From Escherichia coli (GTDB lineage: Bacteria > Pseudomonadota > Gammaproteobacteria > Enterobacterales > Enterobacteriaceae): a stretch of DNA of 64,000 bases. Made by a program: the position numbers and the translations under genes. This document shows, piece by piece, positions 25,602-28,373 of the stretch (within the stretch, counting starts at the first letter, position 1; the number at the start of each line of letters is the position of its first letter). The notes beneath the pieces were generated by a model, which worked only from the letters and a program-made list of their open reading frames with translations, was not told the origin of the DNA and searched no databases. The stretch is taken from the NCBI RefSeq assembly GCF_003334405.1, contig NZ_QOWM01000001.1; one strand, written 5' to 3'.

Positions 25602-25628
25602 TAAAAAATAAGCCCGTGTAAGGGAGAT
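25602..25628. other. 27 bp sequence matching the phage P2 attachment core (unoccupied attB)
   Basis: aaaaaataagcccgtgtaagggagatt overlaps the 3' end of cyaR; no P2-derived genes (ogrK/yegZ) between cyaR and yegR. Confidence 0.6.
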
Positions 25629-25688
25629 TACACAGGCTAAGGAGGTGGTTCCTGGTACAGCTAGCATTTTATGGGTTATGTTTTTCAG
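25602..25688 (-). ncRNA. cyaR: CRP-activated Hfq-dependent sRNA CyaR (RyeE)
   Basis: Reverse complement reads GCTGAAAAACATAACCCATAAAATGCTAGCTGTACCAGGAACCACCTCCTTAGCCTGTGTAATCTCCCTTACACGGGCTTATTTTTT, matching the CyaR sequence, ending in a terminator hairpin and U-run; TGTGA half-site about 40 bp upstream of the 5' end. Confidence 0.9.
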
Positions 25689-25773
25689 CGAAACGGATGA
25701 TAACCTTAATAAATGCAGCTGTATGTGATCGGTTTCTAAGAATTTTCCATCCGGGAAAAATAATCGAAATTAA

Positions 25774-27135
25774 TCACTTACCGTGGGGATTACGCGTGGT
25801 TTCCCCGGAGAAATTACGCATCAGCAGCGCGTAATTGAGCTCAAGATCCTGCGGGACCGGGAGCCACACAGTATAACCATCGCCTGGTGCTATCGGCATA
25901 GCTTCGCCTTTGGCGTTTTCCATGTGCTCAAGGGTAAAATTAATGTTGCCTTGCGGCGTCATCAGCTCAAGGCTGTCGCCAACGGAGAATTTATTTTTCA
26001 CCGCTACCGCCGCGAGGTCCCCCTTGCGCTCACCGGTAAACTCACCAACAAACTGCTGGCGGTCAGAAACTGAATAACCGTATTCGTAGTTCTGATAATC
26101 GTCGTGAGTATGACGACGCAGGAAACCTTCGGTATAGCCACGATGCGCCAGACCTTCCAGAGTTTCCAGCAGGCTGGTATCGAACGGTTTTCCCGCAGCG
26201 GCGTCATCGATAGCTTTGCGGTAAACCTGTGCGGTGCGTGCACAATAGTAGAAAGATTTGGTACGACCTTCGATTTTCAGCGAATGCACGCCCATTTTGG
26301 TCAGGCGTTCTACATGGGCGATGGCGCGCAGATCTTTCGAGTTCATGATGTAAGTGCCGTGCTCATCTTCAAACGCGGTCATATACTCGCCCGGACGCTG
26401 GGCCTCTTCGATCATAAACACTTTGTCGGTTGGTGCGCCGATACCCAGCGTCGGCTCAACATTTTGCACCGGAATCGGCTCGTACTTGTGTACGATGTTG
26501 CCAACATCATCTTCTTTCCCTTCCTGGACGTTGTACTCCCAGCGGCAGGCGTTGGTGCAGGTGCCCTGGTTCGGGTCGCGCTTGTTGATATAGCCAGAGA
26601 GCAGGCAGCGACCGGAGTAGGCCATGCACAGCGCGCCGTGAACGAAGATCTCGATCTCCATATCCGGCACCTGATTGCGGATCTCTTCAATCTCTTCCAG
26701 CGACAGCTCGCGAGAGAGGATCACGCGGGTCAGGCCCATTTGCTGCCAGAATTTCACCGTCGCCCAGTTCACGGCGTTAGCCTGCACCGAAAGGTGGATC
26801 GGCATTTCAGGGAAGTGCTCACGCACCAGCATAATCAGCCCTGGATCGGACATAATCAGCGCATCCGGCCCCATTTCCACCACCGGTTTCAGGTCACGGA
26901 TAAAGGTTTTCAGCTTGGCGTTGTGCGGTGCAATGTTGACCACGACATAAAACTTTTTCCCCAGCGCGTGGGCTTCATTGATGCCGAGCTGAAGATTTTC
27001 GTGGTTGAATTCGTTGTTGCGCACACGCAGGGAATAACGCGGCTGGCCCGCATAAACAGCATCTGCGCCATAAGCGAAAGCGTAACGCATATTTTTCAGT
27101 GTTCCCGCCGGGGAAAGGAGTTCCGGTTTAAACAT
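25774..27135 (-). CDS. trhP: peptidase U32-family protein (YegQ/TrhP, tRNA U34 hydroxylation factor)
   Basis: 453 aa MFKPELLSPAGTLKNMRYAFAYGADAVYAGQPRYSLRVRNNEF... Confidence 0.92.
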   Translation of the reverse strand: MFKPELLSPAGTLKNMRYAFAYGADAVYAGQPRYSLRVRNNEFNHENLQLGINEAHALGKKFYVVVNIAPHNAKLKTFIRDLKPVVEMGPDALIMSDPGLIMLVREHFPEMPIHLSVQANAVNWATVKFWQQMGLTRVILSRELSLEEIEEIRNQVPDMEIEIFVHGALCMAYSGRCLLSGYINKRDPNQGTCTNACRWEYNVQEGKEDDVGNIVHKYEPIPVQNVEPTLGIGAPTDKVFMIEEAQRPGEYMTAFEDEHGTYIMNSKDLRAIAHVERLTKMGVHSLKIEGRTKSFYYCARTAQVYRKAIDDAAAGKPFDTSLLETLEGLAHRGYTEGFLRRHTHDDYQNYEYGYSVSDRQQFVGEFTGERKGDLAAVAVKNKFSVGDSLELMTPQGNINFTLEHMENAKGEAMPIAPGDGYTVWLPVPQDLELNYALLMRNFSGETTRNPHGK

Positions 27136-27237
27136 AATTCTCTCGTTCTGATGACAGGTCAGATCCGCTTCACCTGATGAAGCGGTTAGGGGAGTGCCCC
27201 CACTTTAAGGGCGGGCATTGTAGCGCAATCGGCGGGT

Positions 27238-27534
27238 TTAGCTCCAGTGTAAATGTCTGGTGGCGTCCTGGTTTTGGTTAAGGATACGAATGACGATAAT
27301 TTCCCCTGGTGATTGCAGGAAATAAATGACGTGGCGTTCAAAAGGAAGAACAAAAATACCTTCGCCTAATTCAGGTCTGGGCGTACCTATATTATTGTTA
27401 CTCAGAATCTGGAGAACGTCTGAAAGATGTTCCACATATCTGTCGGCTTGTGGTTCGCCGAAATGGTGATAGCTGTAATACCAGATGCCTTCTAAATCCT
27501 CATTGGCTTTTGGCATGAGTTTAATAATACGCAC
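27238..27534 (-). CDS. ParE/RelE-superfamily type II toxin
   Basis: 98 aa MRIIKLMPKANEDLEGIWYYSYHHFGEPQADRYVEHLSDVLQILSNNNIGTPRPELGEGIFVLPFERHVIYFLQSPGEIIVIRILNQ...; ParE-like size and pattern; starts 1 nt after the upstream antitoxin stop. Confidence 0.8.
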   Translation of the reverse strand: MRIIKLMPKANEDLEGIWYYSYHHFGEPQADRYVEHLSDVLQILSNNNIGTPRPELGEGIFVLPFERHVIYFLQSPGEIIVIRILNQNQDATRHLHWS

Positions 27535-27535
27535 A

Positions 27536-27787
27536 TTATTTCCTTATCCCTGCTTTCACCTTCCGTAAGAACGCGTCCTTTTCCCACGGCTGAGCTTCAC
27601 CACTACTCAACCCTTCTGCGAGCATGTCACGTAACGCTTGCAGGCGAGACTCTGCTTGCTTTTCTCGAAGTAATCGCAGTGACTCACGGATCACTTCGCT
27701 TTGGGTGCGATAGTCGCCGGATTCAATTAAGGACTCGATAAATTCACGCAACTCATCGCCGAGATCAACCGTCATCGTTCTGGCCAT
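27536..27787 (-). CDS. ParD-like ribbon-helix-helix antitoxin
   Basis: ORF 27536..27832; likely start MARTMTVDLGDELREFIESLIESGDYRTQSEVIRESLRLLREKQ... (GGCGGG 8 nt upstream); RHH antitoxin pattern. Confidence 0.75.
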   Translation of the reverse strand: MARTMTVDLGDELREFIESLIESGDYRTQSEVIRESLRLLREKQAESRLQALRDMLAEGLSSGEAQPWEKDAFLRKVKAGIRK

Positions 27788-28040
27788 TTTACGCCCGCCT
27801 GTAAGTAAAAATCTTACATCAGTGTATGTCATAAACCGGATAGCGTCACGAAAGTATTAGAAGATATTTTGGCACATGAACATGTTCAGGAGGATAAGTA
27901 TGGGATGGTAAACAAAGAAAGCACAACGAGTGCTCGTCAGTGCCCACTATTTTAATGGCGGCGGTTACTCTTAATTATTAATAACTAAGCGTTATTTGGA
28001 TATAAAGCCGGACGCCAACAACCCACGCCCGGCATCGTAA

Positions 28041-28373
28041 TTACGTATTGTCTTTCACCGTCTGGCTTGTGCCATTGGCTTTAACGGAGGCAATTCCGGT
28101 TTCACGAGATTGCGCGGTGGCGTACATCTGGCTGGAGCCGATAATTTGATGATTAGCGGCTTTCAGATTGAAATAGAATTTGCCGTTACTTGCCGTTTTT
28201 TTCTCATAGCGTTCTTCTTGCGGGCTGTTGCTACGCACCGACGCGATGCCCTTTTCCGCAGAGGCTTTTGATGTATACAGCTCGCTGGTGAGGATAGTCT
28301 CACCATTGCCCGCTTTTAGCACAAACCGGAACTGATTATCACTGCTCTTACTGAGTTCAAACCAACCAGCCAT
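28041..28373 (-). CDS. yegP: UPF0339/DUF1508 tandem-repeat protein YegP
   Basis: ORF 28041..28412; product from MAGWFELSKSSDNQFRFVLKAGNGE... with an internal duplication (FRFVLKAGNGE / FYFNLKAANHQ). Confidence 0.88.
   Translation of the reverse strand: MAGWFELSKSSDNQFRFVLKAGNGETILTSELYTSKASAEKGIASVRSNSPQEERYEKKTASNGKFYFNLKAANHQIIGSSQMYATAQSRETGIASVKANGTSQTVKDNT

Follow-up and report, generated by a model that had tools for sequence, protein, structure and literature searches.

Why is the spacer between yegP and yegQ/trhP, which is 146 bp long in Escherichia coli K-12, 905 bp long in another E. coli strain, what does the additional DNA encode, and could it affect yegQ? We addressed this question in a 64-kb stretch of E. 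coli DNA (contig NZ_QOWM01000001.1, assembly GCF_003334405.1), referred to here as the window, where the spacer is exactly positions 27136-28040. A preliminary description of this spacer had noted two co-directional open reading frames (ORFs) that are 1 nt apart and lie upstream of yegQ on the same strand. These ORFs are present at 27536-27832 and 27238-27534, both on the minus strand. We consider it probable that they form a type II ParD/ParE module that is functional and autoregulated, on a 780-bp islet that was inserted long ago, within Escherichia, into the predicted promoter of yegQ. The element is an ordinary two-gene ParD/ParE cassette of low novelty, with both genes already named in RefSeq, and it leaves the understanding of ParDE systems unchanged. 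The most interesting feature of the locus is the position of the cassette inside the yegQ promoter, at a hotspot with three alleles.

The islet and its limits

The genes of the locus and the islet are as follows.

25774-27135, minus strand: yegQ/trhP
27227-28006: parDE islet, 780 bp that replace 21 nt of the ancestral yegP-yegQ spacer, delimited by alignment with K-12 and by the outgroup spacers
27238-27534, minus strand: parE, 98 amino acids, GTG start with AAGGAA ahead of the GTG
27536-27787, minus strand: parD, 83 amino acids (MARTMTVDLG...), ATG at 27787
28041-28373, minus strand: yegP

The flanks are identical to K-12 up to 27226 and from 28007, and between these positions K-12 has 21 nt where the window has 780 bp. 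The exact junctions are uncertain by a few nucleotides, since both the C-run (27231-27236) and the TTTA (28003-28006) may belong to the ancestral spacer. The G+C content of the islet is 43-47%, compared with 51-59% for yegQ and baeR. The islet holds two genes only. There are 174 bp upstream of these genes without a credible ORF, and thus a third, regulatory gene is not part of the cassette. The islet has no transposase or integrase ORF and in this respect is not a self-mobile element, be it an insertion sequence (IS), a transposon or an integrative islet. Direct or inverted repeats in the flanks do not exceed the chance level, and neither terminal repeats nor a target-site duplication are found at the islet. 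In every carrier sampled, RefSeq labels the two genes "type II toxin-antitoxin system RelE/ParE family toxin" and "ParD family antitoxin", and the exact proteins occur on at least 1000 contigs each in public collections. The number of complete E. coli genomes in which RefSeq names both genes is about 1800.

The antitoxin and the toxin

The antitoxin matches ParD_antitoxin (PF03693) with E=8.6e-19 and TIGR02606 with 87.6 bits (cutoff 46.2). There is also a weak match to RHH_1 (E=0.0049, residues 21-57 of the long antitoxin ORF). Over residues 2-78, ParD is 61% identical to PrpA, the structure of which consists of an N-terminal ribbon-helix-helix and a C-terminal toxin-binding region. The 83-residue ParD accordingly has a ribbon-helix-helix domain at its N-terminus and a toxin-binding tail at its C-terminus, and would neutralise the 98-residue ParE by wrapping the toxin.

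The preliminary description had recognised a ribbon-helix-helix antitoxin of the ParD kind, and this family assignment stands. The ORF listed there does not, because the real start is at 27787 and gives 83 rather than 98 residues. The same 98-residue protein, starting at 27832, is the RefSeq model, and we rejected it as over-extended. Firstly, the PF03693 and TIGR02606 matches begin only at residue 16-19 of the long ORF. Secondly, intact Klebsiella and Pantoea plasmid homologues begin with the same MARTMTVDLG as the shorter protein. Thirdly, a 1-nt indel between the two candidate ATGs in O55:H7 and Escherichia whittamii puts the upstream ATG (27832) out of frame, and in these two the 83-residue ORF has synonymous changes only or one conservative change. 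The start that these sequence comparisons support is the ATG at 27787. In the O55:H7 strain DEC5E (locus L010, 910-1207), RefSeq flags the ParD gene as "frameshifted", and the indel lies upstream of the real start. This flag is an annotation artefact, because RefSeq uses the over-long model. The 83-residue antitoxin is thus a useful annotation fix, as the 98-residue model yields false pseudogene calls such as the one in O55:H7.

The toxin matches ParE_toxin (PF05016) with E=2e-13 over model positions 1-88 of 89. The ParE/RelE fold proposed in the preliminary description is therefore borne out by profile searches. Among PDB sequences, ParE matches PrpT (7YCS, 2e-12), Mycobacterium tuberculosis (Mtb) ParE1 (8C24, 6e-8), Caulobacter ParE1 (3KXE, 2e-7), Vibrio ParE2 (7R5A, 7e-7) and Mesorhizobium ParE (6X0A), five ParE-type toxins that span 2e-12 to 4e-3. 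The identity to PrpT, Mtb ParE1 and Caulobacter ParE1 is 29-34%. The PDB sequence matches of the antitoxin are the partners of these toxins, and at E<0.01 all matches of both proteins are ParE or ParD of toxin-antitoxin (TA) systems (PrpT/PrpA, Mtb ParDE1, Caulobacter ParDE1, Vibrio ParDE2 and Mesorhizobium ParDE3). In M. tuberculosis, ParE1 and ParE2 trap cleavage complexes of gyrase (PMC10899793), and Vibrio ParE2 poisons gyrase (PMC3001019). By analogy, the ParE of the islet would also target gyrase.

The parD stop codon TAA and the parE GTG are separated by one nucleotide (27535) on the same strand, with the Shine-Dalgarno sequence within the 3' end of parD. From this arrangement, parD and parE are probably co-transcribed. 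Both genes are under purifying selection. Compared with E. whittamii, parD has 11 synonymous changes and 1 non-synonymous change (ratio of non-synonymous to synonymous rates, dN/dS, 0.02), and parE has 9 synonymous and 4 non-synonymous changes (dN/dS 0.11). In each of the four full-length islet alleles that were compared (L003, L010, L011 and L007), the parE ORF is unbroken.

Control of the cassette

Two signals upstream of parD are relevant to the regulation of the cassette.

27800-27818, minus strand: inverted repeat TGTAAG-N7-CTTACA, putative ParD/ParDE operator, overlapping the predicted transcription start
27821-27849, minus strand: inferred parDE promoter, with -35 GTGACG (27849-27844), a 17-nt spacer and -10 TACACT (27826-27821)

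The inverted repeat is the sole match to TGTAAG-N7-CTTACA in the window, where 0.04 would be expected by chance. We compared the DNA upstream of parD in four divergent loci, namely the window, Klebsiella pINF078-VP, Pantoea pDSJ09 and an E. coli IncF plasmid. Each of them keeps the repeat between a -10-like hexamer and the parD start, and the DNA further upstream does not align. The hexamers directly 5' of the repeat are TACACT, TATAAT, TATAGT and TAAACT. PrpA binds its own promoter, with the footprint motif TTTG(T/A)AAT (PMC7848731). The half-site TGTAAG resembles this motif, and the DNA-reading strand of PrpA is nearly identical to that of ParD. The repeat at 27800-27818 is the likely operator for ParD or ParDE at the predicted transcription start. 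We suggest that ParD binds this repeat, which would overlap its own transcription start, and that the cassette is autoregulated in this way.

The yegQ promoter and leader

The following features lie between the islet and yegQ.

27217-27222, minus strand: yegQ -10 box TACAAT, retained; its partner -35 box TTTACC is replaced by the parE 3' end
27165-27185, minus strand: palindrome CCGCTTCA-CCTGA-TGAAGCGG, exact; middle hairpin of the yegQ 5' leader, core DNA

In a promoter scan, the K-12 spacer holds a sigma-70-like promoter, TTTACC-17 nt-TACAAT (0.1 expected by chance). The -35 box, the -10 box and the 17-nt spacing are kept in E. albertii, Enterobacter asburiae, Kluyvera georgiana and Lelliottia. 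In the window, 4 nt lie between the -10 box and the upstream junction on the yegQ side, and the last parE codons (GGAGCT) fill the -35 position. As read from the sequence, the insertion falls within the conserved predicted yegQ promoter, between its two boxes, and displaces the -35 box. A promoter scan of the window allele finds no promoter on the minus strand, and a terminator scan finds none between the parE stop and the yegQ start. Because the -35 box is displaced and the scans find neither a promoter nor a terminator, altered transcription of yegQ, read-through from parDE included, is plausible and reasonable to infer. In islet strains, yegQ is probably without its native -35 box, and it may be partly transcribed by read-through from parDE, because no terminator separates parE and yegQ. 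The possible effect on yegQ expression raised in the preliminary description gains support from the junction so close to the -10 box and the displacement of a conserved -35 box. The spacer is a natural experiment with three alleles at one site, where the parDE allele splits a promoter that is conserved across at least five genera.

One could go further and propose that the insertion has rewired a core gene. Expression of yegQ/trhP, which encodes a prephenate-dependent tRNA U34 hydroxylase, would then be tied to read-through from a promoter autorepressed by ParD or ParDE, and ParD would in addition act in trans on related plasmid cassettes. We hold this extended proposal to be unlikely. If true, wobble-base modification would be coupled to the TA state in a third of E. 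coli strains.

Between Escherichia, Enterobacter, Kluyvera and Lelliottia, the DNA that runs from the -35 box to the start codon of yegQ hardly varies. The yegQ promoter and leader (27136-27226, minus strand; 1637-1746 in the K-12 locus L001) include three predicted leader hairpins with the palindrome in the middle one. The palindrome is identical in K-12 and conserved over five genera, and at three of its pairs both partners have changed with the pairing retained. Rfam has no family that covers the spacer or the yegQ leader, and this sequence may be an undescribed cis-regulatory leader. The preliminary description had correctly located the exact palindrome at 27165-27185, and had taken it for a possible operator or insertion junction. 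These roles were rejected, because the palindrome is a covarying hairpin of the core yegQ leader that is identical in K-12 and conserved in genera without the islet. An invariant UCUGA-N7-UCAGA stem in the same leader adjoins the Shine-Dalgarno sequence.

Distribution, polarity and age

The alleles of the spacer were counted over 5426 complete E. coli genomes.

1844 of 5426 (34%): parDE islet allele, always a single chromosomal copy, 97-100% identical
3180 of 5426: intact short spacer
298-305 of 5426: 5.1-kb island allele, with a PcfJ-domain protein, DUF1266, DUF4034 and a hypothetical protein

Most of the approximately 100 remaining genomes were not examined individually. All 1846 genomes with the islet have it on the chromosome, and the cassette persists as one of three alleles at the yegP-yegQ spacer. 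Its carriers include O104:H4, O111:H8, O121:H19, O91:H21, O113:H21, B7A and O55:H7. K-12, ST131 and O157 strains have the short spacer. Thus, the islet is strain-variable and missing from K-12, as the preliminary description had supposed, rather than a core feature present in K-12 and in essentially all E. coli. IS1 insertions were seen in islet-bearing alleles, and an IS3 insertion in one with the short spacer.

In the outgroups E. albertii, Enterobacter, Kluyvera and Lelliottia, the spacer is short and measures 146-154 bp. Because these outgroups share the short spacer with its conserved promoter, the short spacer is ancestral and the islet is an insertion. We had first favoured the opposite polarity, in which the empty spacer of K-12 derives from a deletion, on account of the islet in E. 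whittamii and of the remnants described below. The short spacer of the outgroups led us to reject it. The 21-nt filler in K-12 has no significant similarity to the islet.

The islet is old and was inserted within the genus Escherichia. A complete islet is found at the same site in E. whittamii. The cryptic-clade strains Escherichia sp. E1V33 (L009) and E3659 (L020) have the same internal deletion, with 27371-27942 missing. The deletion has removed the promoter together with parD and half of parE, the first, and has left the last 43 parE codons and part of the upstream non-coding DNA. At synonymous sites, parDE of the window and of E. whittamii have diverged by 0.16-0.23, compared with 0.40 for yegQ and 0.49 for baeR. 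The islet may have moved between lineages by recombination in the flanks after their split.

The 5.1-kb island (15258-20370 of L016, E. coli A26) stands at the site of window positions 27257-27947 and has four genes on the opposite strand. It keeps both ends of the parDE islet, 27227-27256 and 27948-28006, and thus it has replaced the parDE core. It is found, among others, in the Nissle-derived SYNB1934, in Seattle 1946 and in clone D i2. The island has no PADLOC match. In strain BS-04 (L012, NZ_CP172819, 1088-1687), an apparent partial islet was set aside. Its long homopolymer runs of T, G and A make it almost certainly a sequencing or assembly error.

Relatives and known systems

The nearest relatives outside Escherichia are the Klebsiella and Pantoea cassettes of pINF078-VP and pDSJ09. 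Like the E. coli islet, they have an antitoxin that begins with MARTM, a toxin gene that begins with GTG, and the operator repeat. Unlike the islet, they are plasmid-borne, their parD and parE overlap by 14 nt and their ParD has 88 residues. In these intact copies on IncF plasmids, ParD is ~91% and ParE 63-65% identical to the proteins of the islet. With Pluralibacter included (distant relatives L004, L006 and L008), the ranges are 88-92% for ParD and 60-69% for ParE, and synonymous sites are saturated. It is unusual for the antitoxin to be more constrained than the toxin, and the opposite trend, a toxin more conserved than its antitoxin, has been reported (PMC7848731). DNA that is 60-80% identical, in the coding part only, is carried by 881 Enterobacterales plasmids. 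The E. coli IncF copy (2301-2889 of L005, on the IncFIA/FIB/FIC plasmid NZ_CP113494) has two stops in parE and a frameshift in parD, and its operator repeat is still recognisable. Such pseudogene copies adjoin the RepFIB initiator and an integrase gene and are found on many plasmids of this kind. In Pluralibacter gergoviae, parE is frameshifted.

Among systems with solved structures, the best match is PrpT/PrpA of the Pseudoalteromonas rubra plasmid pMBL6842 (7YCS/7YCU; PMC7848731, PMC9731233), with 61% identity for ParD and 34% for ParE. It has the same PF05016 and PF03693 architecture, a nearly identical RTMTVD DNA-reading strand and a similar half-site, TGTAA. However, PrpTA is plasmid-borne, and PrpA also binds the iterons of the origin and controls plasmid copy number. 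The islet does not have the setting of such a copy-number controller: the locus is chromosomal, there is no replicon nearby and the operator motif occurs once in the window. Caulobacter crescentus ParDE1 (3KXE), Mtb ParDE1 (8C24) and Vibrio cholerae ParDE2 (7R5A) are chromosomal two-gene systems of a ribbon-helix-helix ParD and a ParE, with similar protein lengths, and Mtb ParDE1 negatively autoregulates its transcription (PMC10899793). Their toxins are only ~29-32% identical to that of the islet, and the genomic contexts differ. The ParE of the Yersinia plasmid pYV is toxic and SOS-inducing, and is only ~33% identical to the ParE of the islet.

Intergenic TA islets, and the decay of chromosomal TA systems, have been reviewed (PMC7167474). 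According to that review, which cites Mine et al. 2009, ccdO157 in the folA-apaH spacer of E. coli is likewise a small chromosomal TA system in a conserved spacer, variable between strains and decaying in some lineages. It differs in having a toxin of the CcdB family, and the yegP-yegQ insertion also splits a conserved promoter and has a third allele that replaces the TA core. E. coli has other toxins of the ParE superfamily. ParDE-I of IncI/IncF plasmids (Kamruzzaman and Iredell 2019, PMC6614396) has a COG3905 antitoxin and a toxin that is only 15% identical to Caulobacter ParE1; it is of a different subfamily and was rejected as the same system because its antitoxin family is different. PaaR2-PaaA2-ParE2 of O157:H7 prophages has three components, is prophage-borne and belongs to another subfamily (PMC7167474). 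A RelE/ParE gene tied to the evolution of quinolone resistance (PMC10575684) was also considered; it was gained 130 times and occurs in 192 genomes, which does not fit the stable locus of the islet.

Alternative explanations

Several points weigh against a functional, autoregulated module inserted into the yegQ promoter. A literature search found no experimental work on this parDE pair or locus. No NCBIfam model matches the toxin, its identity to the gyrase-targeting toxins from which we draw the analogy is only 29-34%, and the target of PrpT is not stated in PMC7848731 or PMC9731233. The parDE promoter, as read from the sequence, fits only 8 of 12 consensus positions and falls below the scan threshold. 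The transcription start of yegQ is taken from conservation and not from mapping, and no mapped start was found in the literature. The toxin evolves faster than the antitoxin, and one comparison within E. coli has 4 non-synonymous and 2 synonymous changes. Finally, in view of the decay in IncF plasmids, Pluralibacter and cryptic-clade Escherichia, some alleles may hold a weakened toxin.

The last two points lie close to the alternative that the islet is a decaying selfish remnant, with a toxin that is weak or inactive in many strains, selection on the antitoxin or repressor only, and no host function. ParE gathers relatively more amino-acid changes than ParD, the E. coli IncF plasmid and Pluralibacter relatives carry stops or frameshifts, and two cryptic-clade Escherichia have the internal deletion. 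Moreover, the core is replaced by the island in ~300 genomes, IS1 insertions occur, and the decay of chromosomal TA systems has been described (PMC7167474). However, both ORFs are full-length in every full-length allele aligned, E. whittamii included, the dN/dS of ParE is 0.09-0.11 in two of three comparisons, and 34% of genomes retain the islet, with 97-100% identity. We consider a mere remnant unlikely and prefer a module that is still functional.

Another alternative is that the islet serves in anti-addiction or cross-regulation, with the chromosomal ParD neutralising the ParE of IncF-type plasmids and repressing the plasmid operon. This concept has been reviewed (PMC7167474). The close identity of ParD to that of the Klebsiella and Pantoea IncF plasmids and Pluralibacter, despite saturated synonymous sites, the common operator repeat and the 881 Enterobacterales plasmids with a relative are all in its favour, and an antitoxin far more conserved than its toxin fits cross-talk with plasmid relatives. 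On the other hand, the E. coli plasmid relatives examined are pseudogenes, so that present-day E. coli may offer little for the chromosomal ParD to counteract. The toxins are down to 60-69% identity, and cross-neutralisation is putative. Thus, we regard anti-addiction as distinctly improbable beside the autoregulated module described above.

The toxin could also act like RelE, as a ribosome-dependent mRNA endonuclease, and not poison gyrase. Both activities occur in the RelE/ParE superfamily, the whole of which is covered by PF05016 and by the RefSeq name, and the fold alone does not give the function. However, the solved relatives by sequence are all ParE-type, and no structure of RelE, YoeB, HigB or YafQ is matched by ParE even at E<=1 among all PDB sequences. 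BLASTP against a manually entered E. coli RelE sequence gave no alignment. The partner is a PF03693 ParD, the antitoxin class that is paired with ParE toxins (PMC7848731). An endonuclease is therefore very unlikely, and a gyrase-directed ParE stays the preferred assignment.

The least probable alternative is an abortive-infection system for phage defence, a role suggested in the preliminary description: some TA systems do defend against phage (PMC7167474) and the site is a variable hotspot with alternative cargo, but neither protein matches any PADLOC-DB v2 family at E<=0.01, phage-borne relatives are essentially lacking, there are no neighbouring defence genes, and no report of ParDE defence was found in the literature searched.

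Neighbouring features

Two further features flank the subjects treated above.

25606-25691, minus strand: CyaR/RyeE small RNA gene, downstream of yegQ as in K-12 (100.7 bits, E=3.6e-20)
28007-28019, minus strand: terminator-like hairpin of yegP, followed by TTTATAT; core DNA abutting the upstream end of the islet, found by terminator scan and common to K-12

Upstream of yegP are baeR and baeS, and the gene order is as in K-12. A second terminator-like hairpin, at 27935-27919 on the minus strand, is broken in the O55:H7 allele and was discarded as probably due to chance. Within the 3' end of parE, 17 nt (27258-27274) show 82% complementarity to the yegP terminator, in its 3' arm and T-tract (28004-28020). 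This complementarity could be a matter of chance or a trace of the insertion event.

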